This document shows positions 1 through 40,136 of a stretch of 64,000 bases of DNA, piece after piece. Below the pieces are notes generated by a model. That model worked only from the letters and a program-made list of their open reading frames with translations. It did no database searches and had not been told where the DNA came from. The stretch spans positions 608,001 through 672,000 of the forward strand of contig CAWBWI010000003.1 in assembly GCA_963792585.1 (NCBI GenBank), written 5' to 3'. Both the position numbers and the translations under genes were made by a program. This DNA is from Candidatus Eiseniibacteriota bacterium (GTDB lineage Bacteria; Eisenbacteria; RBG-16-71-46; CAIMUX01; VGJL01). Each line of letters opens with the position of its first letter. The first letter of the stretch is position 1.

Positions 1-597
1 ACGGGGATCAAGCTTCACGATGCTCTGTTCTTCGTCGACATGCGCCGGGGCCTGGAATTTGCACGACGGGTCACCGCACTCAATATCAGGTGGGCTGCCA
101 CCATGCACCCGGTCACTCTCTCGAAGATTGACCGGGGCACGCTCTCCGATCTCCGCCGCAGCGGCTTATCGCGTTTGATGGTGGGATTAGAGTCTGGTAA
201 CCAGCAGGTAGTGGATCTGGTGGGCAAACGGTTCAGCGTCCGCGCCATTCCGACCATGGCGAGCAAGCTCCGGGATGCGGACATTATCGGAATGTTCAGC
301 ATGGTGGTCGGCTTTCCCACCGCCGACCCGAGCGAGTACTCCGACACCATCCGGAGCGCTCACGAGATTCACCGGATTTGGGACCGCCATCAGGTCAAGA
401 TCCACTACGCCAGTCCTTGGCCTGGTACTACAATGTGGGAATCTGCTCTCACAGTGCCCGGCTTCACCCCCCCCGCTGACCTCCTCGGATGGGCTAGCTA
501 CGACTACTACCTTGCCCAAATGGTATTCCATGACAGGTCCTGGACAACTGCAATCGACGCTATCAACCGTGCTTACTGTCCTTACTACCATGCGTGA
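1..597 (+). CDS. Radical SAM protein, C-terminal part (B12-binding/class B methyltransferase-like); 5' end lies outside the window
   Basis: Frame is open from base 1. Contains LRRSGLSRLMVGLESGNQQV, FSMVVGFP and PWPGT, typical of the TIM barrel of B12-dependent radical SAM enzymes. The B12 domain and CxxxCxxC motif are not in the window. Confidence 0.75.
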   Translation, partial: TGIKLHDALFFVDMRRGLEFARRVTALNIRWAATMHPVTLSKIDRGTLSDLRRSGLSRLMVGLESGNQQVVDLVGKRFSVRAIPTMASKLRDADIIGMFSMVVGFPTADPSEYSDTIRSAHEIHRIWDRHQVKIHYASPWPGTTMWESALTVPGFTPPADLLGWASYDYYLAQMVFHDRSWTTAIDAINRAYCPYYHA

Positions 598-607
598 GGA
601 GCGCCCC

Positions 608-1720
608 ATGAATGCGACCCATGCACCCCTATCTGACATCCTTCTACGCGCATCCGTTAGTTCCCGATGCAACTTCAACTGCAGTTACTGCCCGAAGGAT
701 GCTACGGCTTCGGGAGGGATGGAGAACTACGCCCCAGATCATCTCGCCGGAAACGCTTTGTCTCCTAACGGCTGCACCGAAGCTCTCCAGCACATCCGCA
801 ATTGTCTCGGTGTAAGAACAGTCAGCTTCACGGGTGGCGAACCAACACTCAACCGTTCCCTTCCTGACCTGTTGGTATCAGCTCGCGCGCTATTCGATCG
901 TGTTGAGATCACAACTAACGGGTCCGACCACGACGACTCCATGGCCACGCGGTTCGCGCGAGTGCCACTAGACCTCGTCAAGATTAGTCTCGATGCTACG
1001 GACCCTACCTCATTCGCCGTGATCACCGGCGTCAACAACCCTGCGGTCTTCCAGGGGGTGATTGAGACGGTACGGACGTTGGCAGCTCGCGGGGTACCGA
1101 TGGCGCTTAATGCCGTCGTGATGCGCAGCACTCTAGCCAGTCTTCGCAAACTGATCGCGTTCGCTCGGATGGTGCCCTGTCCCATCCATCTCCTCGACTA
1201 CGTCTTCTATCCCTCCAAGCGAGACCACTGGGAGACTGAGTTCGTCCCCATGGAATTCCTCGCGAATGTCTTCACCGAGGAGTACGGTCCCCCTAAGACA
1301 GTCACCCGATACGGATGCACATTTTACACCTACAACTTAGAAGACATCTACATCCGCTTCAAGGATTCCATGACGGCGACAACTCGCGCTCCGGCTTGTA
1401 GCCGCTGTATGGAGTACTGCCAAGAAGGCCCCTACGGCCTAAAGCTAAGCGTCGAAGGCTGGGTCACTGCTTGCCCATCAATCGATCCGAGAAAGGGGGT
1501 CGCCCTGCCAGCGGGCTTGGACAGCAACGACGCTGCGGATCGCCTCGCGACGCTCGTTCCAATGTTCACCAATACAGAAGTAGACACGCGCTCATTCGCG
1601 CACTTTCTTCGCAGGTGGGATCTACATCCTGCGGTCACGAGAGATGAGGTTCGGCGGACTGTCAGGTCTTGTGGACCTGTGACACAGCGCACCACCAAGC
1701 GTTCCGCTGGATGGTCATGA
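608..1720 (+). CDS. MoaA-like radical SAM enzyme with C-terminal Cys cluster (twitch/SPASM-like)
   Basis: RCNFNCSYC, FTGGEP, ITTNG, KISLD and C-terminal CSRC...CQEG...ACP. GAGGAG RBS precedes ATG 608. Confidence 0.85.
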   Translation: MNATHAPLSDILLRASVSSRCNFNCSYCPKDATASGGMENYAPDHLAGNALSPNGCTEALQHIRNCLGVRTVSFTGGEPTLNRSLPDLLVSARALFDRVEITTNGSDHDDSMATRFARVPLDLVKISLDATDPTSFAVITGVNNPAVFQGVIETVRTLAARGVPMALNAVVMRSTLASLRKLIAFARMVPCPIHLLDYVFYPSKRDHWETEFVPMEFLANVFTEEYGPPKTVTRYGCTFYTYNLEDIYIRFKDSMTATTRAPACSRCMEYCQEGPYGLKLSVEGWVTACPSIDPRKGVALPAGLDSNDAADRLATLVPMFTNTEVDTRSFAHFLRRWDLHPAVTRDEVRRTVRSCGPVTQRTTKRSAGWS

Positions 1721-3120
1721 CCTCACGTCGGACAATGGAGACGCACGGTATGTTCATAGTCAACCCAACACCCGACAAGCACGAAGAGGAGCTCCTCGAT
1801 CTGGCTGCTCCAATCAGATTCGATCCATACTTTACATTTGGGCGTGGGCCAGCGGTGATGGGGAGGGTTGTCGACCTTAGAGCCTCTCCGGACGGGGCGC
1901 ATCTCGTCCTACGCTCGCCGGACGGCGACCGACGCTTCTTAATCCGGTTCCCCGATACGCCGGGAGTCGCCGAGGTACGACCAGGAGACCACATCGCACT
2001 CGTAGTCGAATCTACCTCCATAACCGCGTTCGCGATACTCAGTCGAGCGGAACGTGCCACCCCGGACGCTGCGGATTGGGGCTCTCCAGAGAACGAGACC
2101 ACCCGCTTGCGACAGCGTGAGGTCGACTTGTTGGTCCGGCCTTCCGCCCGCCGCATGGTCGAACAACGCAGCGCGATTCTCTTCGGAATTCGCCAACACC
2201 TACAGCAACTGGGTTTCATTGAACTTGAGCTCCCAGTCTTGAAGCGGCATCCAGACGTGGCTCCAGCGCAGCACTTTGAGGTCGTCGACAACAACGGACG
2301 GCACCTCTATCTTCGCACCACGTTCCCGCCATTCGAGCGCATGTTCGTGTCCCTCGACCGTGCATATACGATCGGACCCAACTTTCGCAACGGGGACTGG
2401 AGCCATAAGAACATACCGGAGTTCACGATGCTGTGCTTGATGATGCGCGGGGCTACGTACCTTGACGCGCACCGTCTTGTCCGCGCGATGATGGCGACGG
2501 TTGTTGCCGACGTAATGGGCACGAGCATTGTTACTTTCCGTGGCCAGCAGTTCAATCTCCGCTCCTGGGAGGAGGTCAGTCTCGTGCAGGAGGTTCGCGC
2601 TCGGCTTGGCGTAGAACTGGCTGAACTGGACGACGACAAAGAGATGACGCGGTTCGCGTCCCGTCATGGGATCACATCTCCAGCTAGCTCGCCAGGTGGA
2701 CATTTGATGCGGGCCGCTCTCTTCGATCGGCTCTTCGAGGCACTGATCGTTCCAGCCTTTCCTGGCCCCACATTCTTCACTGACGTGCCCTGGTATCTGG
2801 CTGGCCCCGCCGAACCGCACCCAAGCATGCCAGGTATCAAGCTCCGTGGAGAGGGTTATGTGGCCGGCATGGAACTCACCAATGCGAAGAACATCCTGAC
2901 CGATCTCGACGCGCTTCGCAGGTGGCACGAGCGCATCGCTCAGGAGAAGCGTAGTGCGGGCTTTAAAGAGGAGTACGCGGCGGTTGATAAGGATTACCTG
3001 CGATCTATTGAGTACGGCCTCCATCCCGGCGCACTGTCCTCGATCGGCATCGATCGTCTCGTCATGTTGGCTCTCGGTGTTGACCATATCTCGGAGGCCG
3101 TCATGTACCCCGTCCCTTGA
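1717..3120 (+). CDS. Class II lysyl-tRNA synthetase-like paralog (LysS/EpmA family), divergent
   Basis: Motif 2 IGPNFRNG..PEFTML and motif 3 SIGIDRLVMLALG, plus DKDYLRSIEYG. ATGA overlap with the upstream gene. Confidence 0.85.
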   Translation: MTSRRTMETHGMFIVNPTPDKHEEELLDLAAPIRFDPYFTFGRGPAVMGRVVDLRASPDGAHLVLRSPDGDRRFLIRFPDTPGVAEVRPGDHIALVVESTSITAFAILSRAERATPDAADWGSPENETTRLRQREVDLLVRPSARRMVEQRSAILFGIRQHLQQLGFIELELPVLKRHPDVAPAQHFEVVDNNGRHLYLRTTFPPFERMFVSLDRAYTIGPNFRNGDWSHKNIPEFTMLCLMMRGATYLDAHRLVRAMMATVVADVMGTSIVTFRGQQFNLRSWEEVSLVQEVRARLGVELAELDDDKEMTRFASRHGITSPASSPGGHLMRAALFDRLFEALIVPAFPGPTFFTDVPWYLAGPAEPHPSMPGIKLRGEGYVAGMELTNAKNILTDLDALRRWHERIAQEKRSAGFKEEYAAVDKDYLRSIEYGLHPGALSSIGIDRLVMLALGVDHISEAVMYPVP

Positions 3121-3155
3121 GCGGCAGCTCACCATTAACGTAAGAAGGAGTACCT

Positions 3156-4121
3156 ATGCTCACACTTCTCCCTAAGCCCCTAACTCCAGGCGACACGGTC
3201 GGAATAGTCTCACCGTCCGGACCTGTTCGTGACCAGCAGCAATTCGAGCGGGGTCTAGCCGTGCTCAGAGAGCGTGGGTACCGGCTGAAGATCGCACCTC
3301 ACGCCCTAGGGCGCACATTCCATATGTCGGCCGCTGGATCAGACAAAGCCGCCGACCTCATTGCGATGTTCACTGATCCTGAAGTGACGGCGATCTTCCC
3401 TAGTGTAGGTGGCCACACGGCCAACCAGGTTCTCGAGCAATTGGATTACCATTCAATCGCACTGCACCCGAAGCTTCTACTCGGCTTCAGTGACAGTTCC
3501 GTTCTGCTGAATGCCATCTACGCGCGCACCGGACTTGTGTCGATTCATGACAACGCTGATGTCATGTTTGGTCTGGGCCGGTTCGGGGACGAGCGGTTGG
3601 CGACCCGAGGCGAATACACGGCCCGCTACCTCTTTGCGGCCCTTGAGACGCCCTTACCTCTCGGACGGATCGAAGCACTAACGGAGTGGCAGTGTTTGCG
3701 ACCTGGGCGCGGGACTGGCCTCGCCCTCGGAGGCAACCTGTCCACGCTGCGTTCAATTATCGGATCTCCGTTTGAGCCGGACTGGGCCTCGGCCATTCTC
3801 TTCCTGGAGGACAAGGCCGAGCCTCACGTGTGGGATCAGCAGCTCGGCCATTTACGGTTGACGGGCATACTGGCCAAGATAGCGGGACTCGTCGTCGGTA
3901 AGGTGGAGAACAAGCCGGAACAGTTCTACAAGGAGAACTATCAAACCCTCGCCGACATTGTGCTTCGCCACTGCGAAGGCTATGGGTACCCGGTCCTATA
4001 TGGCGCGGATTTCGGCCATGACGTTGAGAACTTCGCGATCCCCATAGGCGTTCGGGCGCAGGTGGATGGCGCTGACAAGTCCGTGACCTTCCTGGGCGCC
4101 GCAACGACCAACCGGATGTAG
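3156..4121 (+). CDS. S66 peptidase (LD-carboxypeptidase / MccF microcin C7 immunity family)
   Basis: GIVSPS, GFSD (catalytic Ser), GGNL, LFLED and DFGH motifs. AAGGAG RBS. Confidence 0.9.
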   Translation: MLTLLPKPLTPGDTVGIVSPSGPVRDQQQFERGLAVLRERGYRLKIAPHALGRTFHMSAAGSDKAADLIAMFTDPEVTAIFPSVGGHTANQVLEQLDYHSIALHPKLLLGFSDSSVLLNAIYARTGLVSIHDNADVMFGLGRFGDERLATRGEYTARYLFAALETPLPLGRIEALTEWQCLRPGRGTGLALGGNLSTLRSIIGSPFEPDWASAILFLEDKAEPHVWDQQLGHLRLTGILAKIAGLVVGKVENKPEQFYKENYQTLADIVLRHCEGYGYPVLYGADFGHDVENFAIPIGVRAQVDGADKSVTFLGAATTNRM

Positions 4122-4125
4122 GGGC

Positions 4126-5352
4126 ATGACACCGCAGCGTCTCGTCATCGGTTTGCCGTCTTTCAATGAAGCCGCCACGATCGGAGCGGTTACCCGCGTA
4201 CTTGACGACGCTGCTTGTAGCCTTACCGGTCTGTGTTGTCTGCTCTGTAATGCGGATAGCGCCTCCGAGGATGGCACGGCCGACGTGTTCCTACGTACCC
4301 CGACAAGGACGCCGAAAGTGTCGCTCGTAACTGGATCCGCCACCGAGAGGGGCAAGGGTCGGAACGTGTTGGCTATTCTCGAACGCGCATCTGGCCTTGA
4401 CGCCGCTTGCGTCTTCTACGATACAGATCTGGTCAGCATCACGCCAGAATGGCTCAAGACGTATGTCGCCGCAATCATCCGCGGATACGACTTCGTCACA
4501 CCGTCGTATCGGCGCGCAAAGCACGCAGCCTCAGTGACAAACACGACACTATACCCCCTCGTTTGCGGCATTCTAGGGGCCGACATTCGGCAGCCGATCG
4601 GGGGCGATTTCGGCCTGTCCAGCGACTTCATCGCTCACGTTCTGAAGAGTCGTAGCGGTCTCGATCCCGCGCTGGACCTTTCCGGCTTCGGTATCGACGC
4701 CTTTCTGACTTGCAGCGCTCTTGAGCGTGACGTGCGTATCTGCGCGGTTCACCTCGGGACTAAGGTACATCGCCCGAAGAATCCCGCTCATGACCTTCTG
4801 CACATCTTTGCCGAAGAGGTGTTGACTACCTTCGCATTCATTCTGCGATACGCCGAGGGCCCGACGGCGCAAAGAACAATTCCCGTCCTTGGGCAGGCGG
4901 GGGAGGGGGACCTTCCTCACCCAGGCGTGGACTGCGGAGAGCTGAGCCTGGCAGCAACGCGTCTTTACGCAGCGCAGGAAAGCGAGATCACTGCATGGCT
5001 CCCTGTTGATGCCTTTCCAGACGTACATAACACACTTCGCACGTCCTTGCGGCCGCGTCTGTCCAATGGCCTATGGTGCGACATTCTTGTAGAAGCGCTG
5101 GTCGCGTTTGCCCGCGCTAGAGCAGTCGAATCCGTCGAGACGCGGCGAGTGAGCTATCGGAGACTTGGATCCAACTTGTATCCTCTCTATCTTGCCAGGT
5201 TGGTCGATCTCGTGGAGGAGACCAGAGACCTGCCCGATGACCTTGCAGAGGACGTGTTTCTATCTTATCCCACAGCGCTCCAACAGAGAAGCGGCCACCT
5301 TATTCGTAAACTGACGCAATGCCTATCCACAGCGCCCACGCTGGTCCGATAA
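4126..5352 (+). CDS. Family 2 glycosyltransferase (mannosyl/glucosylglycerate synthase-like)
   Basis: IGLPSFNEAATI, GKGRN, DxD (YDTDL), IRQPIGGDFGLS and FGIDAFLT motifs. Confidence 0.85.
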   Translation: MTPQRLVIGLPSFNEAATIGAVTRVLDDAACSLTGLCCLLCNADSASEDGTADVFLRTPTRTPKVSLVTGSATERGKGRNVLAILERASGLDAACVFYDTDLVSITPEWLKTYVAAIIRGYDFVTPSYRRAKHAASVTNTTLYPLVCGILGADIRQPIGGDFGLSSDFIAHVLKSRSGLDPALDLSGFGIDAFLTCSALERDVRICAVHLGTKVHRPKNPAHDLLHIFAEEVLTTFAFILRYAEGPTAQRTIPVLGQAGEGDLPHPGVDCGELSLAATRLYAAQESEITAWLPVDAFPDVHNTLRTSLRPRLSNGLWCDILVEALVAFARARAVESVETRRVSYRRLGSNLYPLYLARLVDLVEETRDLPDDLAEDVFLSYPTALQQRSGHLIRKLTQCLSTAPTLVR

Positions 5353-5370
5353 CGCAGCAGGAGGAGTCGA

Positions 5371-5460
5371 ATGTCCGTGGATCGGATACCCAACCAAACG
5401 CGATATGCAGTCAGAGGCGCTCCTTCCATGGAGCGGTCTGTGTCGCGAGGGAGGGAATGA
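5371..5460 (+). CDS. Candidate 29-aa small ORF (MSVDRIPNQTRYAVRGAPSMERSVSRGRE)
   Basis: Strong CAGGAGGAG RBS before ATG 5371. Its TGA overlaps the next ATG (ATGA). Below the ORF-track length cutoff. Confidence 0.4.
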   Translation: MSVDRIPNQTRYAVRGAPSMERSVSRGRE

Positions 5461-6764
5461 CGATGATTCTTGTAATCGGCGCTTCTGGCTTCCTGGGTAG
5501 CCGCCTCATTGCGGCACTGTCGCGGGAAGGGCCGGCCGTCGGTACATGCTGCAATGACAGGCTTCGCGACATGCTGGACTGCGATCTGCGCGTCGATTCG
5601 GCGCTGGACCGAGTGTTGTCCATGGCCGCGGGCAAGGTCGTTTACTTCTGCGCCAACGTTGGTGGCCGCCAGACTGCTGCAAGTGCTCCGGCCGACGCCT
5701 ATCGTGTGAACGCCTACGCACCGAGTCGCATCGCTGCAGTGGCAGCTCAGTTCGTTTACTTCTCGACGGACTACGTGTTCGACCGGCCCGGCATGGCTAC
5801 GGAAGAATCGGCGCCGAGCCCTGATTCGATGTACGCAAGGTCCAAGGCGGACGGCGAGCGTGCCGTTCTTGCGGCTTCCGATACCGTACTGGTAGTCAGG
5901 ATATCGGGTCTGTTCGATGCGCGGGGCACACGAAACGTGCAGTTTGCAGACGCAACAGCTGTTCGGCCTCCCGACAACCGAATGAGCAACCCGACCTTCG
6001 TTCCCGATTTGCTCTCGGTCGTCCGCCTATGGCAGTTGGCCGGCATACGTGGTATTCGTCATGCCTGCGGTCCAGATACGCTTTCCGAATATGAGTTCCA
6101 TCAACTCGCAAGCTTGCGCTGGGGTTACGACGTCCATCCATCACTCTCCTCATCGCCCCGATTCGGAACGCGCTTAGTGTCCTCGTCGCCCGGTGCCATT
6201 CGAAGTCCTTCAGAAGTGTTTATTGATGAACGCTCGCAGGCCTCGTGTGAGATGTGCGGTGACCAGGTGCTCGTTGCTGACACCGTGGGAGTCGTTCTTT
6301 CCGGAAGGAGATGGAAGGAGACCGACCCTCGCTTCTGGTTGGACGTCAATTCCGATCCGAGCGCGACCCTTCGTACCTTGGGCCCAGAGCGAGTGGCCGC
6401 TGCCTACTGCCCAAACCCTCGCTTCTGGCGCATGCTTCGTACGCGACCTGCGGCGGTCAGGATGGTCCTGGCAAACAACGGACCCTGGGAGTCGTTTTTC
6501 CTATGGCAGACTAGGTATGGCCTCTCACGCATATTCGAGCTTGTCATAAACTCCGAGCGAGACAAGATAGTTAAGCCGCAGCGGGCGTTTCGGGCCGGAA
6601 TCGACGCATTTGCAGGTGGACGGTCAATCCATCTGATCGATGACCATTGCGACGTCGTGACCGCCGCAACGAACTGGGGATGGATCGCCAACCAGACGAC
6701 TCTCGTTTCTACGTGGCCCATCGAGGAGTACAGCTACCCGGGAATGGAGGCTATATGGGCATAA
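5457..6764 (+). CDS. RmlD-like sugar-nucleotide reductase (extended SDR) fused to a degenerate HAD-like domain
   Basis: GASGFLG, FSTDYVFD, YARSK and NPTFVPDL in the N-terminal part. C-terminal ADTVGVVL, LANN, KP and LIDD..DV resemble the HAD motifs. Confidence 0.75.
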   Translation: MTMILVIGASGFLGSRLIAALSREGPAVGTCCNDRLRDMLDCDLRVDSALDRVLSMAAGKVVYFCANVGGRQTAASAPADAYRVNAYAPSRIAAVAAQFVYFSTDYVFDRPGMATEESAPSPDSMYARSKADGERAVLAASDTVLVVRISGLFDARGTRNVQFADATAVRPPDNRMSNPTFVPDLLSVVRLWQLAGIRGIRHACGPDTLSEYEFHQLASLRWGYDVHPSLSSSPRFGTRLVSSSPGAIRSPSEVFIDERSQASCEMCGDQVLVADTVGVVLSGRRWKETDPRFWLDVNSDPSATLRTLGPERVAAAYCPNPRFWRMLRTRPAAVRMVLANNGPWESFFLWQTRYGLSRIFELVINSERDKIVKPQRAFRAGIDAFAGGRSIHLIDDHCDVVTAATNWGWIANQTTLVSTWPIEEYSYPGMEAIWA

Positions 6765-7762
6765 CGAACGTGAGAACCGGTACGCGCGCCATTCCCCTGT
6801 CACCGATCAGCCGGCAGATACACACCGTCAACGGGCCGTTCGCCCCCCGAACGACGCTGATCAAGCCATCCCATTTCCCGAGTCCTTATGATCGCTTCCG
6901 GACCGGTGAGTATCTATTCATGACTCGGATCGCCGGATACCAGATTGGCGGATCCGCGCGGTACAGAGAAGGTAAAAATCGTGTCCTCGTAACTCTATAC
7001 GCACCGCGTCAGCAGTCTAGTCCGGGAAACCTCGGTCAGGTCCAGCAGGAAGTCGCCCGACGTTTGGGCCTGCATGACGACCTGAGCGGCTACGAACGCA
7101 TCTGGGCAGGAGACCCCATTCTACGTTCCCTACCGTCGGAAATGATGGGCGCCCGGCCGTCTAGTCCATTTGCGCTCTATGAGTTTCTGGTGATTTGCAC
7201 GCTGCTGCAGAACACGGTGGTACGTCGGACAGTTCAGATGGCCAATGCACTCGCGGAATACCTCGGGGGTCTCTTCCAGTTCCCGGATGGCACGACGCTC
7301 CGTGGGTTCTGGGAACCTGGTGCGTTGGTGAGTGTCGGCGAGTCGCGCCTTCGTGAGTTGCGTCTCGGATACCGGGCGAAGACCTTAGTCCGCTTCTCCG
7401 AGCAGTTCTCTAACCAACCAACACTCGAAGCGGACCTGCTTGGCCTTGCGGGACATCCTGATAGTCTTCGCGACGCCATCGATGACATATATGGTGTTGG
7501 ACCGGCCTCCGCAAACTACGTTCTTTTCGAGTGGTTCAAGTGCACCGGGGCGCTGTTTACACTGTCGCCTTGGGAAGCCAGGATCTTGTCTCGCCTGCTG
7601 TTCAAACGGGATGATGTCGTTGCGTCCCGAACGATGGCGTTCTGCCAGCGGCGGTGGGCACCGCACGCGATGCTTGCCGTTCACGCGGTCTTTGAGACGG
7701 CGTTTTGGGCGCGCGCACGAGGAGAGGGACCGGAGTGGCTCAATGAACTCATTCGGCTCTAA
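6755..7762 (+). CDS. HhH-GPD superfamily DNA glycosylase-like protein (AlkA/OGG-like)
   Basis: LLQNT, LRLGYRAKTL and HhH motif IYGVGPASANYVL. GGAGG RBS before ATG 6755. Confidence 0.75.
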   Translation: MGITNVRTGTRAIPLSPISRQIHTVNGPFAPRTTLIKPSHFPSPYDRFRTGEYLFMTRIAGYQIGGSARYREGKNRVLVTLYAPRQQSSPGNLGQVQQEVARRLGLHDDLSGYERIWAGDPILRSLPSEMMGARPSSPFALYEFLVICTLLQNTVVRRTVQMANALAEYLGGLFQFPDGTTLRGFWEPGALVSVGESRLRELRLGYRAKTLVRFSEQFSNQPTLEADLLGLAGHPDSLRDAIDDIYGVGPASANYVLFEWFKCTGALFTLSPWEARILSRLLFKRDDVVASRTMAFCQRRWAPHAMLAVHAVFETAFWARARGEGPEWLNELIRL

Positions 7763-8579
7763 CAACCTTCGGCGGATGCGGACGGCAGTGCGCAACGCGC
7801 TCGCAGCTGGAGGAGCGGAAGAACTCGAGGAGGAAGCTGATGCAATCATGGAGCATATCGCACGTATGGGATTCTTGGCGGAAGAACCGATGAGTGCACT
7901 CTTGAGTTCCTTGGCAGCCGGGGTATCTCCGTACCTGCTAACCGGCAAGTATCGTATTCGGGGGACAGATCATGTGATCCGTGTGGCACCGGGTGTGATG
8001 CCACCAGGTGGCGACACGTCGCATGTCACCGATATCCTCCGCGAATTCGTACGCAGCTCATCTCCGAGGCTGTTGGCGGACATCGGGTGCGGGACCGGAG
8101 TCTTGGGCATTTCGGGTTTGATCGCCGATCAGGGCTGTCTAGCTGTCCTAGTGGACTCAGACTTCACGGCCTGCCGCGCCGCTCACAGTAACCTTAGGTA
8201 CCTTGGGCTCTTGAGCCGTGCGCACGTCGTTTGTGCCACGGGGTTGGAGTCCCTTCGCTCGAACGTACTGGACTTACTGGTCGCCAATTTGCCATTCGTG
8301 CCCACTGCCTTGGTATCCTCCTTGCCGGCACGCTTCGGCCGATACGTCCCTTCTCACGCCGTGGATGGAGGCCCCGATGGACTGGCCCATATACGGCACC
8401 TACTGTCCCAGATCTGTAGGGTGGTTCGACCGGGCGGTAGACTGATCCTCCAAATCGGCACCGGTCAGAAGGGGGCTGTCGCCAACATGCTGGGCAGCTC
8501 GTGGCTGCAAGACCCGGCTTCGACGATCCAGCACGACACCTTGGTGGTGGCACACCGTGTAGGGAATCAGTTCTCATAA
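7743..8579 (+). CDS. HemK/PrmC-like SAM-dependent methyltransferase
   Basis: DIGCGTG, ANLPF (NPPY variant), AVDGGPDGL and RPGG motifs. Confidence 0.8.
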   Translation: MNSFGSNNLRRMRTAVRNALAAGGAEELEEEADAIMEHIARMGFLAEEPMSALLSSLAAGVSPYLLTGKYRIRGTDHVIRVAPGVMPPGGDTSHVTDILREFVRSSSPRLLADIGCGTGVLGISGLIADQGCLAVLVDSDFTACRAAHSNLRYLGLLSRAHVVCATGLESLRSNVLDLLVANLPFVPTALVSSLPARFGRYVPSHAVDGGPDGLAHIRHLLSQICRVVRPGGRLILQIGTGQKGAVANMLGSSWLQDPASTIQHDTLVVAHRVGNQFS

Positions 8580-8583
8580 TTCA

Positions 8584-9657
8584 ATGCAATCACACATGCA
8601 ATCAGGAGCTTCAGCAGCACTTCCCTTCGGCACACGTGCGAACGCCGCACGTCTTTCGGCCATTGTCTTGATTTTGTACGCCCGCAACAACGTTACCGGC
8701 GAGGAGCTGGCATCTAAGCTCGGCGTGACGCTTCGCACGGTTTATCGCGACGTAGCTCGCCTCGAGGGACTCGGGTTCCCCATAGCAGCCAGTCCAGGCC
8801 CTGGCGGTGGCTTCACTCTGGACTTCATGTCAGCAGAAGAAGGAGGCATCGCCACTGAACGAGACCTTCTCGATGTCTTCGCACGGACCGGGCTGACGGC
8901 TCCCGATAATGCGACCCTTGACGCAGTAATCGGAATGGCCGGCGATGCTATTACTGCGGCCGATTTGCAGAGTCTTCGCAATGCTGCAGATCGTATCCTC
9001 TTCGATCCAGAAGAGTGGTACAGGAGAACGAGACCTCCGGCGGACTTCGGGGTCGTTAGGCACGCCGTGCTGAACGATGTACGTCTTGACGTGGCATTCA
9101 CTGAGCGCACAGGGCCGGGACTTATCGAAGACGTGTTTGATCCCTACGGGCTTATTTGGAAGGGGGGGGTGTGGTACATCTACGGCTACAGTCATCGGGA
9201 ACGGGGGATGCGCCGGATTCGCGTTGAGCGGCTTGTTCGAGCACAGATGAGCGCTGAGCACTTTCGGCGGCCCAAGGACTTCGACTTGTTGCAGCAATGG
9301 CAAGAAGAGCTTGAGTCCTTCGGCAAAGGAACTACGCGCGTTGTCATTCGCATTGAGCAGTCCGTCGTGCCAGAATTCGAGCACTTCAATTGGAAGCGCG
9401 AGAACAAGATCATCAGGAAGCGGGACCATTGGCTCGTGGAAATGCGGGTCGACAATGTCGCATGGCTGGTGCCGCTCGTTCTATCATATGCCGGCGACGT
9501 CAGAATCCTCAGGCCTCCGGCACTCTGCGATCTCGTCCTCGCAGCTGCCCGGGCGGTTCTTGCCGCCCATTCTGGGGAACACGCCGGACCAAGCGGGAGC
9601 CATACCGACGATTCGCGTAGCCGCGCTGCCATTCATCGCCGTAGTCACCAGGAATGA
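8584..9657 (+). CDS. HTH-WYL domain transcriptional regulator (YafY/PafB-like)
   Basis: ELASKLGVTLRTVYRD HTH, PYGL..KGGVWYIYGY..RIRVER WYL core, and a WCX-like tail. Confidence 0.92.
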   Translation: MQSHMQSGASAALPFGTRANAARLSAIVLILYARNNVTGEELASKLGVTLRTVYRDVARLEGLGFPIAASPGPGGGFTLDFMSAEEGGIATERDLLDVFARTGLTAPDNATLDAVIGMAGDAITAADLQSLRNAADRILFDPEEWYRRTRPPADFGVVRHAVLNDVRLDVAFTERTGPGLIEDVFDPYGLIWKGGVWYIYGYSHRERGMRRIRVERLVRAQMSAEHFRRPKDFDLLQQWQEELESFGKGTTRVVIRIEQSVVPEFEHFNWKRENKIIRKRDHWLVEMRVDNVAWLVPLVLSYAGDVRILRPPALCDLVLAAARAVLAAHSGEHAGPSGSHTDDSRSRAAIHRRSHQE

Positions 9658-9717: not shown

Positions 9718-10287
9718 TTGCATATGGTTACAGGCGAGTTCCATTCAGGCGAGCGCCTTTCGGTACTCCTCGCTGAGTACCAACGTGTGCGAGACGAGAT
9801 ATTGCACCACAAGTCGACACAACAGACGGTCATGAACTTCATCATCCTGCTCGCCGCGGCCGAGGTCGCGATGTTTTCTCAGATTGTGGAAAGAGGCTTC
9901 GACGCGCGGTATACGACGGTGCTATTGCTGCTGCCGTTGCCCTTCGCCCTGCTAGCGGTGTACCACTCTGCGTACACAGCGCGGATTCACGTACTCGCCG
10001 AGTACCTCGACGGTGACCTCCGGCATAAGCTCGAGCACATCGTAGGCGATGGGGCGCTGAGGGCCAAGTCGTACTATGCCACACGTAACGTTCTCGGCTT
10101 AAGGCACGCTCGATCGGACGGCAAAGCTACCTATCTCGCACTCTTGGGGCTGAAGAGTCTACCGCAGATCGTGCCTCTGGCCGCTTGCGTGACTCTGGGT
10201 GTGGAAGGTCTCTCTTGGTGGCAGTGGGCCTGGTTGTGTGGCGACGTTGCTCTACTGCTTGTGTCATCTCTGGGTCAACATGACTGA
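9718..10287 (+). CDS. Hypothetical multi-pass membrane protein
   Basis: EY...R.EI N-terminal helix followed by about 4 hydrophobic segments. Confidence 0.6.
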   Translation: MHMVTGEFHSGERLSVLLAEYQRVRDEILHHKSTQQTVMNFIILLAAAEVAMFSQIVERGFDARYTTVLLLLPLPFALLAVYHSAYTARIHVLAEYLDGDLRHKLEHIVGDGALRAKSYYATRNVLGLRHARSDGKATYLALLGLKSLPQIVPLAACVTLGVEGLSWWQWAWLCGDVALLLVSSLGQHD

Positions 10288-11377: not shown

Positions 11378-11589
11378 CAGGTAGTCCCTTGAATGGCCGG
11401 TGCAGCATTTGCCGGCACGTTGCGGGAGCGTTCCTGGCGGTCTCCCGAGTGGCGTCGCTACGGCGAGGATGCACGACCGAAGGGCGTTGCCCAGCGTGAG
11501 GACGAGGCTTCGCTCCGGGCTCGCGCCCTCCGTCCCACTATCGCGCAGCCCCCGGCCCAGCTACGACGCGCCGGTTCTCCTGATGAATG

Positions 11590-11905
11590 GGTAACGTCAC
11601 TTGTTTTGTGTCAGCAGGAATGGGGTAGCTGCCCCCTCTCTCCTATTCGCATAGTTGAAAACGGCATACAGAATCCGTTCGATGCTCATTCGATCGCTGA
11701 ATGCTCCCATCGGACGGGTCCTGCGCCGCACCTCCCGGAATCGACGCTCGATTGCATTCGTCGTCCGGCTCATCCGCTGCCAGTCCGGCTCCTTCAGCTC
11801 GTAGTGGTTCAGCAACTCGTCAAGGTCCTTCATCAGGCATCGCACGGCCGCATGGTAGAGCTTGTCCCACTTCGCGCCGAATCGCATCGCCGCCTGGTCG
11901 GCCCT
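11590..11905 (-). mobile_element. IS256-family transposase 3' remnant with terminal inverted repeat
   Basis: RTTNAIERRFREVRRRTRPMGAF is a typical IS256 C-terminus. GGTAACGTCACTTGTTTTGTGT resembles an IS256 end. The 5' part is missing. Confidence 0.8.
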
Positions 11906-12695: not shown

Positions 12696-13382
12696 ATGTC
12701 CGAGAATGGACTCATCCGCACGATCGAGATCAAGGACCGCACCGGCCGAGTGATCGGCACGAAGGAAGTCGTCACGTACCAGGGTCTTCTCTCCAAGGCC
12801 CACGATGAAGGCCTCCAGCGTGTCGCGACCCGCCTCGTCCAGGTTCCCTCGGACGAGAACGGCCGCACCGCGATCGCGAAGGCGCTCGTGGAGACGAAGA
12901 AGGGTCGGTTCGAGGGGATTGGCGATGCCAACCCCGAGAATGTGAACTCCTTCATCGTCCCGCACCTGATCCGCATGGCCGAGACCCGCGCGAAGGCCCG
13001 CGCCCTCCGCGATGCCGTCAATGTCGGCGTCATCTCCTTCGAGGAACTGGACGGCGACGGGGTTCTTCCCAACGGATCGGACCTCGGGTCGGGTGCTTCC
13101 GAGCCGGCTCGCAGCTCGCCCGGCAACGGCCGCACGAGTCCGCGTCCGGCTTCAGGGAATGGCAGTGGAAACGGCAACGGGGCCCTCATGACCGAGGCCC
13201 AGCGCCGCTACCTGTTCCGCATTCTGGCGGGGCAAGGCATCGACAACGAAGCTGCCCATGACTACCTGAAGGGCCACTTCGGGGTCCCTGCTCTCGCTCA
13301 GGTCACGAAGGCGCAGGCCACGGCTGCGATCGACGAACTCCTGAAAGGTGAGGAGGTCCCGCATGGATCCCCTCAGCGTTAG
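12696..13382 (+). CDS. Putative single-strand annealing protein (Rad52/Sak/RecT-like)
   Basis: AAGGAGG RBS, MAETRAKARALRDA motif, G/N/S-rich linker and C-terminal helical domain (TEAQRRYL...ATAAIDEL). Adjacent to an exonuclease. Confidence 0.6.
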   Translation: MSENGLIRTIEIKDRTGRVIGTKEVVTYQGLLSKAHDEGLQRVATRLVQVPSDENGRTAIAKALVETKKGRFEGIGDANPENVNSFIVPHLIRMAETRAKARALRDAVNVGVISFEELDGDGVLPNGSDLGSGASEPARSSPGNGRTSPRPASGNGSGNGNGALMTEAQRRYLFRILAGQGIDNEAAHDYLKGHFGVPALAQVTKAQATAAIDELLKGEEVPHGSPQR

Positions 13383-14124
13383 CCGGGTCCAGACCTACCT
13401 CGGTTGCCCGCTCCAGTACCGCTTCCGCTACATCGACAAGATCCCGCCCCCGTGGCGTCCGGCCGCCCTCGTCTTCGGCTCCACAGTGCATGCGACCATC
13501 GAGTGGTTCCACCGAGAACGCCTCGCCGGTCGCAACCCTACGCCCGAGGCAACGGCTGCCATCTTCAACGCCGACTGGTTCGCGGAGAACCTCGAGCCCG
13601 TGGTCTTTCCCGAGAAGGAGTCCAAGGACTCCCTTGCGGAGAAAGGCCGCGCCCTCGTCACCCTCTACGTGGAACAGATCGGCGAGACGTTGCCCAAGCT
13701 CATCGAGGACCGCTTCGAGATCGACTTGGTCGATCCCGAGACCGGGGAAGTGCTCGATGTGCGCCTCCGCGGGATCATCGATCTCGTTGAGGCCGACGGC
13801 ACGCTCGTGGAGCTCAAGACCGCGGCCCGGACCTTCGATACGGGCACGCTCGAACGGCACCTCCAGCTCTCCACGTATGCCTTGGTCCGCTTCCTCGCGA
13901 CGGGAGAAGTCCCACCGCTTCGGATCGACGCGCTCCTCAAGACCAAGGTCCCACGCCTCGAGCGCCTCCCGGCAAGCCGTACGGTCGAGGATCTCGCCTG
14001 GACCGTTCGGTTGATCGAGCGCGTGGCCCTGGCCATCCGCAGCGGCTGCTTCTACCCGAATCCCTCCTGGCGGTGTGGGGAGTGCGAGTACTTCGCACAC
14101 TGCCAGTCGTGGCGGGGGGAGTAG
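13363..14124 (+). CDS. PD-(D/E)XK nuclease, RecB/AddB/Cas4-like exonuclease with 4-Cys staple
   Basis: YLGCPLQY, GSTVHA, LRGIIDL, ELKT, QLSTYA and CGECEYFAHC motifs. Confidence 0.9.
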   Translation: MDPLSVSRVQTYLGCPLQYRFRYIDKIPPPWRPAALVFGSTVHATIEWFHRERLAGRNPTPEATAAIFNADWFAENLEPVVFPEKESKDSLAEKGRALVTLYVEQIGETLPKLIEDRFEIDLVDPETGEVLDVRLRGIIDLVEADGTLVELKTAARTFDTGTLERHLQLSTYALVRFLATGEVPPLRIDALLKTKVPRLERLPASRTVEDLAWTVRLIERVALAIRSGCFYPNPSWRCGECEYFAHCQSWRGE

Positions 14125-14143
14125 CCCGCTCCTCTCCAGCACC

Positions 14144-14171
14144 GGGGCTCTTCATCACGAGGAGCCCCTTT
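14144..14171 (+). terminator. Intrinsic terminator-like hairpin after the exonuclease gene
   Basis: GGGGCTCTTC-ATCAC-GAGGAGCCCC-TTT. Confidence 0.5.
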
Positions 14172-14230
14172 CCCTTCCCACCGGACACCTCGGACAAGGG
14201 CGCGTGCAACGTGCCCGTCATGGAGGAACC

Positions 14231-14884
14231 ATGCTTGAAACGGATGTTCCCCAGGGCATCACGCCCCAGGTCCACTGCCGTGAGGACTGCCGATCCTGGC
14301 CGGTGACGCGCCTCCTCGGCGCCGTGCTCTGCTCCGACCACGCGGCCGAGGCGCTCCTCACGAAGTTCGGTTCGCTCGACCTCATCGCCGATGCCGGATC
14401 CGCCGACCTCGTGTCGGTGCCGGGAATCGGGCGGCGTCGGGCCACGCAGGTCTTCGCAGCCTTCGAGCTGGCGCGCCGCGCTACCATCCCCCGGGCGGAG
14501 ACGAAGGTCGAGATCCGCTCGGCCGAGGATGTCGTCCGCCTCGTTGCCCCGGCCCTCCAGGACCTGAAGCGTGAGATGTTCGTTGTCCTGCTCCTGAACA
14601 CCCGGCACCGGCTCCTGAAGATGGAGACGGTGAGCCTGGGGAGTCTCAGCGCGTCCATCGTCCACCCGCGCGAAGTGTTCCGCTCCGCGATCCAGGCGGC
14701 CGCGGCCGCGATGATCCTCGCGCACAACCATCCCTCCGGGGACCCGCAACCGTCCGACGACGACATCGAGATCACCCTACGACTTCGGGACGCCGGCCAG
14801 ACGATCGGCATCAATGTCGTGGACCACGTCGTCATCGGTGGTAACGGAACCCACTACTCATTCCAGGAGAACGGGGGTTTCTGA
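14231..14884 (+). CDS. radC: RadC family JAB-domain protein
   Basis: VPGIG HhH, VHPREVF, AHNHPSGDPQPS.DD and DHVVIG motifs. GGAGG RBS. Confidence 0.95.
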   Translation: MLETDVPQGITPQVHCREDCRSWPVTRLLGAVLCSDHAAEALLTKFGSLDLIADAGSADLVSVPGIGRRRATQVFAAFELARRATIPRAETKVEIRSAEDVVRLVAPALQDLKREMFVVLLLNTRHRLLKMETVSLGSLSASIVHPREVFRSAIQAAAAAMILAHNHPSGDPQPSDDDIEITLRLRDAGQTIGINVVDHVVIGGNGTHYSFQENGGF

Positions 14885-14910
14885 CCCTGTCTCTAGAGAG
14901 GAGTCCTGTC

Positions 14911-15639
14911 ATGTCCGGCATGCTTGTCCTGCACCGCGGCGGCTGGGAGGCGACGCCCGCCGACCTCGCCGCCGTTCCCGTGCCTGAAGAGACCGACTCG
15001 TACGTGCCGGTGCCCCATGGCCGCTTCGTCGAGGAGGTCGAACTCCACGTCCCACGCTTCGGCCTCACGATCACCGATGCCCGCTACGCGCTCGCTCACG
15101 ATGGAATGCAAATGTTTGGGGTCCTGACCTGCACGAACGGTCAGAACCACGCGGACTACGGGCTCGCCATCGGTCTCCGGAACTCCTACGACCGTTCACT
15201 GTCCGTGGGTCTCGTGGCGGGAAGCCGGATCTTCTGCTGCGACAACCTCGCCTTCTCGGGTGAGGTGGAGACCAACCGCAAGCACACGGTGAACGTGTTC
15301 CGGGATCTGCCCGATCTCATCTACCGCATGCTCTCGCAGGTTTCGTCGATGCGGAGCCGGATCCACGCGGAGATCGCGGCGATGAAGGAGCGGGAGCTGT
15401 CACCCGAGACGGCCGACCATCTCATGGTCGAGGCGGTTCGCAGGAACGTCCTTCCTGCTTCGAACCTTCCCAAGGTGATCGAGGCATGGGAGAAGCCGGC
15501 GCACGAGGCCTTCGCGCCCCGGACCGCCTGGTCGCTCTTCAACGCCTTCACGGAAACACAAAAGTCACGGAGTCCGCGTGTCCAGATGGACTCCGGGCTC
15601 CGGCTCGCCAGCACCTTCCGGAGCGCGCTCGCGCTCTGA
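14911..15639 (+). CDS. DUF932-family phage/plasmid/ICE protein
   Basis: GLRNSYDRS, FCCDNLAF, KHT and TAWSLFNAFTE motifs. Sits next to radC. Confidence 0.75.
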   Translation: MSGMLVLHRGGWEATPADLAAVPVPEETDSYVPVPHGRFVEEVELHVPRFGLTITDARYALAHDGMQMFGVLTCTNGQNHADYGLAIGLRNSYDRSLSVGLVAGSRIFCCDNLAFSGEVETNRKHTVNVFRDLPDLIYRMLSQVSSMRSRIHAEIAAMKERELSPETADHLMVEAVRRNVLPASNLPKVIEAWEKPAHEAFAPRTAWSLFNAFTETQKSRSPRVQMDSGLRLASTFRSALAL

Positions 15640-15674: not shown

Positions 15675-15791
15675 CCTCAGCTTCGAAGACGGCCCCCGAT
15701 ACGCCGGCTTGCGCTATCCTACTTGGCAGGGATGCACCACTTGTGGCCACCCCTATACCAACAGCGGAATGGGCCATCATGGAGGTCATGG

Positions 15792-17183
15792 GTGACTTCG
15801 ACGAGATTCAACCCCTTCGATAAGGACCTGAAGGACTTGCTTCCGGCCGATCTCGCTGTGCTGCGCACCATCTCGGAAGGTTGGTACGTCGAATACAAAC
15901 AGACCCTTATCGAGACCGAGCGCCTTGCTAGGTCCATCGCCTCGTTTGCAAATCAATACGGGGGATGGCTGTTTCTGGGCATCAAGCAGAGCGGCGACGG
16001 GCGCGACACGGCGGGCACATTCGTCGGCATTTCGTGTGATCAGATCCAGCTCGCGCGAACTGAATGCAGGAATGCTGTCCTTACGAAACTCTCTCCGGCC
16101 CCGTATTTCGATCTCAAGCTTCTCGAGGGACCGAGTGAGGAACTCGGACTACCGAGGGGCCGGGGCGTGCTGGTGCTCTCGATTCCCCAGGGGATGGATC
16201 CACCATACGTCCATAGCTCCGGCGTGATCTACCGACGTGTTGCCGACGGTTCTGACCCGAAGCCGGAGACTGACCGCCATGTTCTAGACATGCTCTGGAA
16301 ACGGCGCGGCGATTCACAGAAGCGCCTAGCCAGGCGATTCCACCGGCAACCGCCCCGTTCGAAGGCAGAGGCAGACCAGACCTACGTTCACCTCCACCTC
16401 CTTGCGGATCCCCTTGGCGACCGGGGCATCCGCTCCCGGATGACGTTCGAGACGTTTACGAAGCTAATGCAACAGCCGCCGGGGAACGAGGTGAACATGC
16501 CGTTCGACAACGTATTCCCGGCCACCGACGCATATGTGGCTAGACAGGTGCAGGGCAACCGGCCTTGGTCTCTCGTGCCGACGTGGAGATATGGTCGCGA
16601 CTGTTCGAGCGTGGTTACCCTTCCCCTCAATCAGGCTAAGGCTTACCACGAGAATGCGTTGGCGTTCTTGAGAGGCTATGCTCACGCTAGCCCACTGATC
16701 GAGCGGCTGCGATTCTCTGACTACGCACCTTGTCGGATACTCGATCTGAACTTCATGTGCGTAGGCCTGCAGTGCGCAATCATCCAGCATCGTGTCCTTG
16801 CCGCTGACGACGGCGTCTTCGGACCATTCTACTTCAGGGCGTTCATTGAGAGCACGTGGCGGCGGATTCCATTTTTGGATCTCGATTCCTATGTTGACTG
16901 GATCAAGGTGGCAGGAGTACCGGTCGTGCAAGACAGTGGGGCACTGGCACCCATGGGGACGGACTACGCCGGCATGGTGGCGCTCCCCGAGCGAACGGAT
17001 GGGTTCCTAGCGGCGGCCACGGCTGCGATTGATGCCCTGTTACCGTTCGTCGCAATTCTACGCGCCCTTGGCGTCCCGCCCGAGGTTCTGATCAATTCTG
17101 ATGGGGACTTCCTCCTACTTGTTGAGCATGCGAAGGAGGTGCAGAAGCTTCGCATGGCAGCGCAACGCACTTACGAGTCGTAA
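15792..17183 (+). CDS. AlbA_2/Schlafen-domain protein with unknown C-terminal domain (putative defence)
   Basis: EGWYVEYK, IASFANQYGGWLFLGI and PY...GVIYRR motifs. GGAGG RBS before GTG 15792. Confidence 0.85.
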   Translation: MTSTRFNPFDKDLKDLLPADLAVLRTISEGWYVEYKQTLIETERLARSIASFANQYGGWLFLGIKQSGDGRDTAGTFVGISCDQIQLARTECRNAVLTKLSPAPYFDLKLLEGPSEELGLPRGRGVLVLSIPQGMDPPYVHSSGVIYRRVADGSDPKPETDRHVLDMLWKRRGDSQKRLARRFHRQPPRSKAEADQTYVHLHLLADPLGDRGIRSRMTFETFTKLMQQPPGNEVNMPFDNVFPATDAYVARQVQGNRPWSLVPTWRYGRDCSSVVTLPLNQAKAYHENALAFLRGYAHASPLIERLRFSDYAPCRILDLNFMCVGLQCAIIQHRVLAADDGVFGPFYFRAFIESTWRRIPFLDLDSYVDWIKVAGVPVVQDSGALAPMGTDYAGMVALPERTDGFLAAATAAIDALLPFVAILRALGVPPEVLINSDGDFLLLVEHAKEVQKLRMAAQRTYES

Positions 17184-24362: not shown

Positions 24363-25415
24363 TTGGATCCCTCCAGTTGGTTCGGGCCGATCTCGGACTG
24401 GGAGAACGGAAGGTTGCGGGCGAAGAAAGGCTGCCCGGTAGCCGGGATGATCCGAGGATCCGCCGCCGGGCGCTCCTCTCTGGTTTGAGGCAACATGGAC
24501 GGCACGCTGAAATCTGGCACACCATTCCGGGGGGGCTGGCGGGCCGCAGAGCGATGGTGCGGGTCCGGACAGAGCACATCCAGCGGATGCACTCCGCAAC
24601 CGGGTCAGAGATCGGAATCGAGAATGCATGTCAGTTCCCTCCATGGGAGATGAGCCGAGTCGGGATTGGGCGGTCGGGGGAAGCGCGGGTGGGAAACGAT
24701 GAGACGGGCCAGGACCGGAGAGAACGGACACCGGAACTGCACCCAAGGGATGATCGCCAATCGATCCGGATCAGCATTCCGCATCGAGCGCCCACCATTC
24801 GCCACGAGCAGAGGAAAGAAGTGCACGTTTACAAGCGCAAGTAAGCATGCGGAACGACGCAGACGATAGCAACTGAAAAGGTTCAGGTGATTCAACAAAA
24901 CACGTGTGTCATCCATATCCAGGGATGTGCACTCAATATGTGCAATACGGACATACACTGCACCATCTTGCAGCCTCACGGAGCCAGAGCGCTACGAATT
25001 ACCCGCGCACAGGAATAAGCGGACACCATCTCCACCATTCCAAGATCCCGCTCGACGACCACCCCCAGCAGACTTAATCTATTTGCGACTTCTCCAGAGA
25101 AGGTTACTGCTGGGGCTGCGGCCACCCTCAGAATGCGCGATGACGTTAGCTTGGGAATTCGGAGCCGCAATGGAAGCCGCGAGTCCATATGAATCGCTGC
25201 GTGCTGCCATCGCCCCCGCGACTGCTGGCGCGCTCCCGTCTCTGTACATCCACAAGTCAATCCCGACAAGACTCGGAACCCATGTCATTAGGGATCAGTC
25301 CCACGTGGCAATGGGGCGTGCTCCACCCATTGGCTAATTCCAGGGCTACTGGAGTTAACCAATCTTGAAACAAATGTCAGAGTGGTGCTCTCAAGAGAAA
25401 GGACGTCTACTGCTA

Positions 25416-37613: not shown

Positions 37614-38816
<1,203 letters not shown>

Positions 38817-38820
<4 letters not shown>

Positions 38821-40134: not shown

Positions 40135-40136
40135 GG

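Follow-up and report, generated by a model that had tools for sequence, protein, structure and literature searches.

Nucleotide analogues are a major source of antivirals and antibiotics, and few nucleotide-analogue defence pathways with several genes are known. In the oxetanocin pathway (OxsB/OxsA), a B12 radical S-adenosylmethionine (SAM) enzyme, a phosphatase and a reduction step act on a purine nucleotide. The plasmid-borne agrocin 84 cluster reportedly contains the aminoacyl-tRNA synthetase (aaRS)-like adenylation enzyme AgnA and SAM enzymes, and leads to a sugar-decorated nucleotide (PMC8323819). Here we describe a nine-gene operon at the left edge of a 64-kb stretch of a Candidatus Eiseniibacteriota genome (host genome G000, contig C3:608001-672000), hereafter the window. 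The operon is a real, complete, mobile and conserved unit, and it would act in the manner of a nucleotide-analogue cluster that brings its own protection; it belongs to none of the tested families. Our preferred reading, to which we give a probability of roughly 40%, is an inducible intracellular pathway to an acylated, tailored purine-nucleotide analogue. An earlier note on this DNA, made from the sequence alone, did not recognise the gene combination as a described cluster. The literature searches agree: they turned up no account of it, most subscription journals and supplementary files falling outside their reach, and the pathway family is apparently undescribed.

Open reading frames and translations confirm nine intact, co-oriented genes on the plus strand from the left edge to position 9657, overlapping or separated by gaps of no more than ~100 nucleotides (nt). 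In window coordinates, the genes and their assignments, which draw partly on AlphaFold2 (AF2) models, are as follows.

1..597, plus strand: B12-binding radical SAM enzyme, 3' part (Pfam B12-binding and Radical_SAM; full protein 447 aa)
608..1720, plus strand: MoaA-like radical SAM enzyme of an unnamed family (MoaA and viperin models below cut-off; AF2 fold)
~1750..3120, plus strand: class II aaRS paralog derived from lysyl-tRNA synthetase (LysRS), catalytic domain (start at 1711 or 1750; LysU alignment)
3156..4121, plus strand: S66 serine peptidase (Pfam; triad S112/E218/H288)
4126..5352, plus strand: GT-A glycosyltransferase, weakly similar to mannosylglycerate synthase (Pfam MGS_GT, 24.4 bits, below cut-off)
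5457..6764, plus strand: RmlD-like short-chain dehydrogenase/reductase (SDR; NAD(P)H oxidoreductase) with a C-terminal HAD-like phosphatase domain (Pfam RmlD_sub_bind; HAD by motif and similarity to locus L091)
6755..7762, plus strand: OGG1/AlkA-fold helix-hairpin-helix (HhH) protein (no Pfam hit; profile search and AF2 fold match)
~7743..8579, plus strand: PrmC/HemK-like N-methyltransferase (PrmC model below cut-off)
8584..9657, plus strand: HTH_11-WYL-WCX transcription regulator (Pfam)
9724..10287, plus strand: small membrane protein after the operon (no Pfam hit; membership doubtful)

The 5' end of the operon lies outside the window, as had been stated, and only the first gene is cut: the B12 radical SAM gene starts at about window position -746 (L001:18254). 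Retrieval of the upstream genes, which the earlier note had advised, revealed no additional biosynthetic gene; neither a further co-oriented enzyme gene nor a precursor peptide was seen upstream, where the flank consists of small XRE-like open reading frames and a divergent toxin-antitoxin-like pair (labels by eye). Because the start at about -746 stands behind a promoter-like site and no enzyme gene precedes it, the operon is complete at ~10.4 kb. The genes listed for the operon in the window, L091, L137, L141 and L173 include no transporter, and the small membrane protein was found in 0 of 21 family loci.

The predicted co-occurrence of these genes in other genomes is supported, since distant loci share the parts and the seven accessory roles (aaRS, S66, OGG1-like, WYL, PrmC, glycosyltransferase and SDR) were found in 0 of 70 control loci. 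The controls surround generic radical SAM genes (1,065,733 bases, same queries) and gave two B12 hits and one HAD hit; they are reused from a contig scan that covered 13 of the 64 parts of the collection and in which 70 of 80 loci were generic radical SAMs. The role queries are imperfectly sensitive: the RmlD genes of L145 and L147 escaped them and were picked up by Pfam, and some table scores are self-hits. All nine roles are present in the metagenome contig L091, in another order and with a different GT-A family. L090 (34% GC) carries seven roles and two PHP-domain genes before its contig ends, and the 2.2-kb L089 holds aaRS, S66 and glycosyltransferase genes ordered as in the window. Seven roles each are found on plasmids of Streptomyces sp. 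F12 (L136) and Nocardia asteroides (L137), which contain both radical SAMs, a short aaRS domain, S66, an SDR of another type, WYL, OGG1-like and a small hypothetical gene; three more Streptomyces plasmids match and are close kin of L136. A Calothrix plasmid (L141) has five roles and is missing the OGG1-like gene. In N. farcinica (L173), both radical SAMs, SDR, S66, WYL and a GT4 glycosyltransferase are accompanied by an unrelated Asp-bearing HhH-GPD protein in the glycosylase slot; no aaRS was found within the fetched stretch, and the operon holds instead a protein of 798 aa containing an FGE-sulfatase domain and, by eye, an FkbH/HAD-like motif.

The system is rare and patchy. It was found in one of 206 genomes of the host phylum (G000 itself), and in two of 401 genomes for the class of G101 and four of 401 for its family, the seed being included in both counts. 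Among 401 Acidobacteriota genomes there were 21 hits and one true member; the other 20 were set aside as a sister B12 family without a MoaA-like partner. This sister family (L153-L172, 20 of the 401 genomes) often occurs as two or three tandem genes. In viral contigs, the MoaA-like scan returned 43 loci, all weak (best E 5e-9) and none of the operon's family, the B12 and aaRS scans gave no match, and phage genomes gave none at 1e-25. L022, a distant MoaA-like gene without partners, was not counted.

Several side observations concern these relatives. The Nocardia clusters L137 and L173 are flanked by DUF4254 and FGE-sulfatase-domain genes, with a nucleoside hydrolase upstream in L173, and on a Nocardia cyriacigeorgica plasmid (L174:10035-11573) the B12 gene is interrupted by integrase and chromate-resistance genes. 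A small hypothetical domain (~125-145 aa) recurs in clusters (L090:1201-1644; L136:9764-10180; L140:7769-8974; L173:8432-8824 and 11393-11809), is once fused to a PHP domain and is absent from the window's operon; it has no Pfam family, and the L090/L136 protein found no name in the ESM Atlas.

Family labels mislead for the proteins of this operon. The MoaA-like enzyme had been described as MoaA/viperin-like, which did not hold as an identity: scores of 93.5 against a cut-off of 284 (MoaA, TIGR02666) and 49.4 against 180 (viperin, NF038283) rule out both, and weak PADLOC pVip matches reach the N-terminal half only. MoaA (GTP 3',8-cyclase) is nevertheless its best sequence and fold match (AF2 model, predicted local distance difference test (pLDDT) 91.7; TM score 0.63). 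The positions of R17, T102 and N165 of MoaA are kept, while those of R71, N124, K163, R192, R266 and R268 are changed and the auxiliary cysteines number four rather than three; the roles of these MoaA residues are as we take them to be. The four C-terminal cysteines C264, C267, C271 and C289 are kept in 79, 79, 79 and 78 of 79 MoaA-like rows, and the alignment also conserves R14, T102, K125, N168, D197, K252 and R260, with no C-terminal GG in the window's protein. A second MoaA-like subfamily retains more of the MoaA triphosphate residues than the window's copy, and a true MoaA is encoded elsewhere in the host genome. The B12 radical SAM lies below every NCBIfam cut-off (best HpnJ, 89.9 against 577.6), its CxxxCxxC motif is invariant across 18 rows, and its nearest solved relatives, AprD4, OxsB, TokK and TsrM (names presumed in part from entry titles), are all distant. 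Trees of the two enzymes sort the loci into two groups with the same membership, monophyly of the MoaA-like subfamilies being neither shown nor rejected (p-AU 0.167), and close homologs of both are named from an ANME-1 archaeon.

The aaRS paralog has kept its ATP site and changed its amino acid pocket. In the alignment to E. coli LysU, the ATP/Mg residues R262, F274, E414, E421, N424 and R480 are kept, the motif 2/3 positions E264 and H270 are changed, and E240, E278, Y280, F426 and E428 are replaced by P, C, M, K and I, with P, C and K invariant across 10 aaRS paralog rows; the assignment of these residues to the lysine pocket and the ATP/Mg site of LysU is our assumption. The anticodon-binding OB domain (PF01336) was found on 0 of the 10 paralogs and on nearly all canonical hits, a degenerate OB fold being possible. 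A canonical LysRS is encoded on contig C7 of the host, and the EpmA model TIGR00462 gives 106.8 against a cut-off of 286.9. Judged from these residues, the paralog likely adenylates an acid other than lysine. The earlier note had named ligases and resistance factors as the roles of such paralogs in antibiotic clusters; because the lysine pocket is lost, this one is not a resistant LysRS. In a quick tree (23 of 35 rows kept; aspartyl-tRNA synthetase (AspRS) represented by one partial row), the associated aaRS domains did not form one clade (p-AU 0.014), which suggests two or more separate recruitments of class IIb domains. Separately, host matches to AspRS and to asparaginyl-tRNA synthetase lie in broken frames (G000:C1 near 1413067-1414345 and 574483), probably owing to assembly indels.

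The S66 peptidase, labelled MccF in the earlier note, has the S66 fold and an intact S112/E218/H288 triad, and its best solved relatives are MccF (131 bits, against 63 for LdcA). The label is weakened by a mid segment that we take to hold the adenine-binding loop of MccF: query positions 136-177 span B. anthracis MccF 139-196, making this segment, itself unaligned, 16 residues shorter and devoid of Trp. The adenine-stacking Trp of MccF is W186 in E. coli, according to PMC8323819.

The OGG1-like protein has Clostridium Ogg as its best profile match (E 2e-35), and its AF2 model (pLDDT 95) shows an AlkA/OGG1 fold with the HhH motif. Family motifs are KPSHF, LQN and GYR, of which LQN and GYR, together with a Trp, are conserved; the aligned HhH proteins varied too much to serve in a locus scan. 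The fold and HhH motif are thus shared with OGG1, Clostridium Ogg and AlkA, and the window's copy differs from them in lacking the catalytic Lys and Asp, which we take to be K222 and D241 of Ogg. Three ordinary Ogg-like rows carry K and D in these columns. After 30 gap rows were dropped from 154 aligned rows, the remaining 124 comprised 47 non-Lys/Asp, 38 non-Lys/Ser, 35 non-Lys/other, three Lys/Asp and one Lys/other. Since both catalytic residues are absent, the proposed self-resistance by base excision is doubtful for the window's copy. Among the best 150 of 339 relatives, one sequence (P0238) is a B12 radical SAM of the operon's family fused to an OGG1-like domain, and another (P0303) is an OGG1-like domain fused to a class II aaRS domain; P0307, which joins an AAA ATPase to HhH, was left out as not meaningful.

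The glycosyltransferase has no match among solved structures; its ortholog is found in L090, and other families occur in L091 (GT2), L173 (GT4) and L009 (GT1). The RmlD-HAD protein matches, over its full length, an L091 protein that has Pfam HAD hits, the HAD-like part of the window's protein having no Pfam hit of its own. The methyltransferase scores 95.7 against a cut-off of 199.1 for the PrmC model TIGR03534, its NPPY-type motif reads NLPF, and another PrmC-like gene is present elsewhere in the host.

The regulator (HTH_11, WYL and WCX in Pfam) has the layout of DriD. It had been compared with BrxR and CapW, and this comparison failed on the WCX domain of DriD-type regulators: according to PMC10853764, BrxR and CapW combine wHTH and WYL and lack this WCX dimer domain. 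A sigma-70-like site, TTGACA-18-TG-CATATT (L001:18212-18241; one found against 0.3 expected in shuffles), ends 13 bases before the operon start, and the palindrome TGACA-N6-TGTCA (L001:18244-18259) covers the ribosome-binding site and start. DriD-type regulators are defined by binding to a palindromic operator in dependence on single-stranded DNA. The palindrome resembles the DriD operator core, given as CGAC-N7-GTCG in PMC10853764, and is a candidate operator. It has one exact copy in the 5.4-Mb host genome; as it was first noticed in the window's promoter, that copy is no independent test. Independent exact copies lie upstream of the L141 cluster and, in L012 and L013, immediately follow the WYL gene, and in total four of the 23 loci scanned have one, against one in 70 control loci.

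The expected defence-island setting was found for the window and L091, which have defence genes nearby. The operon has a GC content of 58.8%, against 65.2% for the contig, and its island is mobile, with insertion sequence (IS) elements. Gabija GajA/GajB genes with strong PADLOC scores lie ~22-26 kb upstream of the window (L002:12252-15859); the same flank also holds a PDC-S01 match (L002:4067-5335) and a TPR-GreAB-C-PIN gene (L001:2442-6221). Within the window, the island includes a type I-E cas operon at 37912-45977 (cas3, cse1, cse2, cas7, cas5, cas6, cas1), a Schlafen/AlbA_2 protein at 15723-17180, an RHS-repeat protein at 20460-24746 and an AbiU2-type HEPN protein at 48194-48955. Genes typical of mobile elements are found at 12696-15636 (Rad52-like by eye, PD-(D/E)XK, DUF932), and a LexA-like gene, a serine recombinase and two RuvC-like genes lie upstream at L001:6671-13063.

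Sister architectures bear on the substrate. In a Micromonosporaceae sample with long flanks, L145, L147 and L149 contain RmlD-like, B12 and MoaA-like genes without aaRS, S66 or HhH. In L147 and L149, the pair and RmlD are followed, according to Pfam, by a class I/II aminotransferase, an unnamed protein of 323-334 aa, a methyltransferase and PurF; in L145, PurF was read by eye. The cluster spans L147:7377-15531 and L149:7493-15312, with NDK, thymidine kinase or CYTH genes nearby, and is a candidate purine natural-product cluster in culturable hosts. These PurF-type loci nest beside L091, inside the window's tree group. L009 has RmlD, both radical SAMs, a GT1 glycosyltransferase and an aminotransferase fragment among IS elements. 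In seven of seven Bacillota loci (L011-L017; e.g. L012:9968-11882), the MoaA-like gene forms a two-gene module with an AspRS-like catalytic domain that has no anticodon domain; the fetched DNA holds no B12 gene, and a WYL gene precedes the module twice. Around the module are found WYL, RidA, an NrtR-type Nudix regulator, an AraC-HD protein and an HTH-PurM fusion.

Elsewhere the radical SAM pair and RmlD accompany PurF, an aminotransferase and a methyltransferase, an association that points to a purine substrate, and a purine link is also suggested by the nearest fold being GTP-binding MoaA and the nearest glycosylase profile being 8-oxoguanine-specific Ogg. The nucleotide-type substrate anticipated in the earlier note is supported as the likeliest reading. 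Four glycosyltransferase families, HAD or PHP phosphatases, and a LysRS-derived domain, an AspRS-like domain or no aaRS at all interchange among the loci, which fits a small-molecule scaffold, and the OGG1-fold protein and DriD-type regulator would tie the product to DNA. The most economical arrangement is a purine-nucleotide remodelling core of two radical SAMs and a reductase, with exchangeable tailoring. In such a pathway, the WYL regulator would respond to single-stranded DNA produced by damage or an infecting phage. A purine nucleotide, probably a guanine nucleotide, would be rebuilt by the radical chemistry of the MoaA-like and B12 radical SAMs, and the RmlD-like enzyme would reduce the keto or aldehyde product. 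The LysRS-derived enzyme would adenylate a non-lysine acid and transfer it to the purine scaffold; the methyltransferase, glycosyltransferase and HAD phosphatase would tailor or mask the product; and the S66 peptidase would take off the acyl group, in unmasking or detoxification. The OGG1-fold protein would recognise the altered base, the Asp-bearing subfamily excising it from host DNA and the Asp-less subfamily of the window only binding it. Tailoring may have split by lineage, into aminotransferase and PurF in one and aaRS-like acylation with S66 deacylation in the other.

Several observations weigh against this purine-analogue pathway. The PurF evidence comes from the sister architecture and not from the window's operon. 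Several MoaA triphosphate residues are lost in the window's MoaA-like enzyme, which leaves a nucleotide substrate not secured, and the fold search of the OGG1-like model puts AlkA first, which makes guanine specificity weak. With A251 and S271 at the positions of Ogg K222 and D241, the window's OGG1-like protein looks inactive as a glycosylase. Transporters adjoin L136 (ABC, MFS), L147 (ABC) and L140 (MFS), favouring export. Only three of the seven WYL-bearing loci have the exact palindrome, and that of the window is positioned as for a repressor, downstream of the -10 box. Ten proteins compared with PADLOC 2.0 reached no specific system model, with weak or generic matches only, and clear defence-gene context was seen in only two loci, the window and L091. 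Product, target, induction and antiphage role are all predicted from sequence. A more specific version is unlikely, namely a new kind of inducible antiphage chemistry in which single-stranded DNA triggers the synthesis of an acyl-masked, radical-modified guanine nucleotide, the modification possibly being written onto DNA, and a dead OGG1, turned into a base-recognition module, feeds the radical SAM and synthetase-like enzymes.

Other explanations were also considered. The operon may be a nucleic-acid modifier, in which the OGG1-fold protein, stripped of its catalytic residues, would turn a base out of DNA or RNA and offer it to the B12 radical SAM and aaRS-like ligase, giving a hypermodified base for self/non-self marking or protection. 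Both fusions (P0238 and P0303) and the NPPY-type N-methyltransferase fit this, as does the OGG1-like family itself, in which only three of 124 rows keep both catalytic residues and 73 non-Lys rows are also without Asp, although the LQN and GYR motifs and the Trp have been retained. However, L141, the PurF-type loci and the fetched stretches of the Bacillota loci contain no OGG1-like gene, no conserved nuclease partner was seen, no family member was found in the viral contigs or phage genomes scanned, and MoaA-fold enzymes are known to act on free nucleotides; the modifier is improbable. Carriage on actinomycete plasmids, the MccF-like peptidase (131 against 63 bits) and the genes for a HIT protein, an ABC and an MFS transporter that come after the L136 cluster would suit an exported Trojan-horse antibiotic similar to microcin C or agrocin 84, i.e. 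an acyl-phosphoramidate nucleotide inhibiting a tRNA synthetase, for which S66 would give immunity and the sugar would act as an uptake tag; AgnA and the SAM enzymes of agrocin 84 (PMC8323819) may have counterparts here. Such a product is doubtful, as the nine genes include no precursor peptide or ThiF/MccB, no exporter is conserved, the peptidase is 16 residues shorter in the segment that we take to hold the adenine-stacking Trp of MccF, and an aaRS inhibitor would leave the recurrent DNA-glycosylase fold and the WYL regulator unexplained.

A pathway without nucleotides could be an EpmA/EpmB-like protein modification with a PrmC-like methylase, a route to a cofactor, to an osmolyte or to some sugar derivative, or the removal of a foreign genotoxin. 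Protein-modifying LysRS paralogs are known (PoxA/EpmA; PMC9437257, which tabulates LysU, PoxA and LysX as LysRS paralogs), and the module of radical SAM and AspRS-like genes in seven of seven Bacillota loci resembles the EpmA/EpmB layout. The mannosylglycerate synthase-like glycosyltransferase with HAD, for its part, resembles compatible-solute genes. The EpmA score below its cut-off (106.8 against 286.9), the lost lysine pocket, the lack of a conserved target protein gene, and PurF and the OGG1-like fusions, which would go unexplained, render this pathway quite unlikely. Finally, a chance or decaying set of island genes is hardly credible: the island is mobile with IS elements and the relatives L009 and L174 are interrupted, but nine intact packed frames, recurrence in distant taxa in different orders, the fusions and the 0 of 70 controls refute a chance collection.

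The operon defines a compact, apparently undescribed pathway family found across bacteria, close homologs of both radical SAMs being named from an ANME-1 archaeon. The family adds at least four new enzyme subfamilies, namely the four-Cys MoaA offshoot, its B12 radical SAM companion, the new-pocket LysRS offshoot and the OGG1 offshoot without catalytic residues. Because there are cultured, harmless carriers (Streptomyces sp. F12 plasmid pFRL6 and the Calothrix NIES-4101 plasmid), the product can be sought directly.

Compared with the described systems, the operon shares with the microcin C cluster an S66 peptidase closest to MccF and possibly an acyl-nucleotide logic. It adds two radical SAMs, the OGG1-like protein and WYL, and has no precursor peptide, ThiF/MccB or conserved exporter; no ThiF hit was found by Pfam among the nine proteins, and none is annotated in L136, L137, L141 and L173. 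The operon resembles the agrocin 84 cluster as published (PMC8323819) and differs from it in having S66, OGG1-like and WYL genes and no resistant full-length synthetase. Prokaryotic viperins (ddhNTP) have the same broad radical SAM fold and, like the product predicted here, represent an intracellular analogue near defence genes, whereas the window's enzyme reaches 49.4 of the 180 bits, carries a MoaA-like auxiliary Cys domain and stands among nine genes, not one or two. The likeness to oxetanocin, presumably, lies in the B12 radical SAM, the phosphatase and the reduction step, although OxsB is distant (61 bits) and 744 aa long and the operon has no HD phosphohydrolase. The aaRS paralog differs from EpmA (PoxA/GenX) in its score below the cut-off, its lost lysine pocket and a partner that is MoaA-like and not a lysine aminomutase, but in both systems a LysRS-derived paralog lies beside a radical SAM gene.

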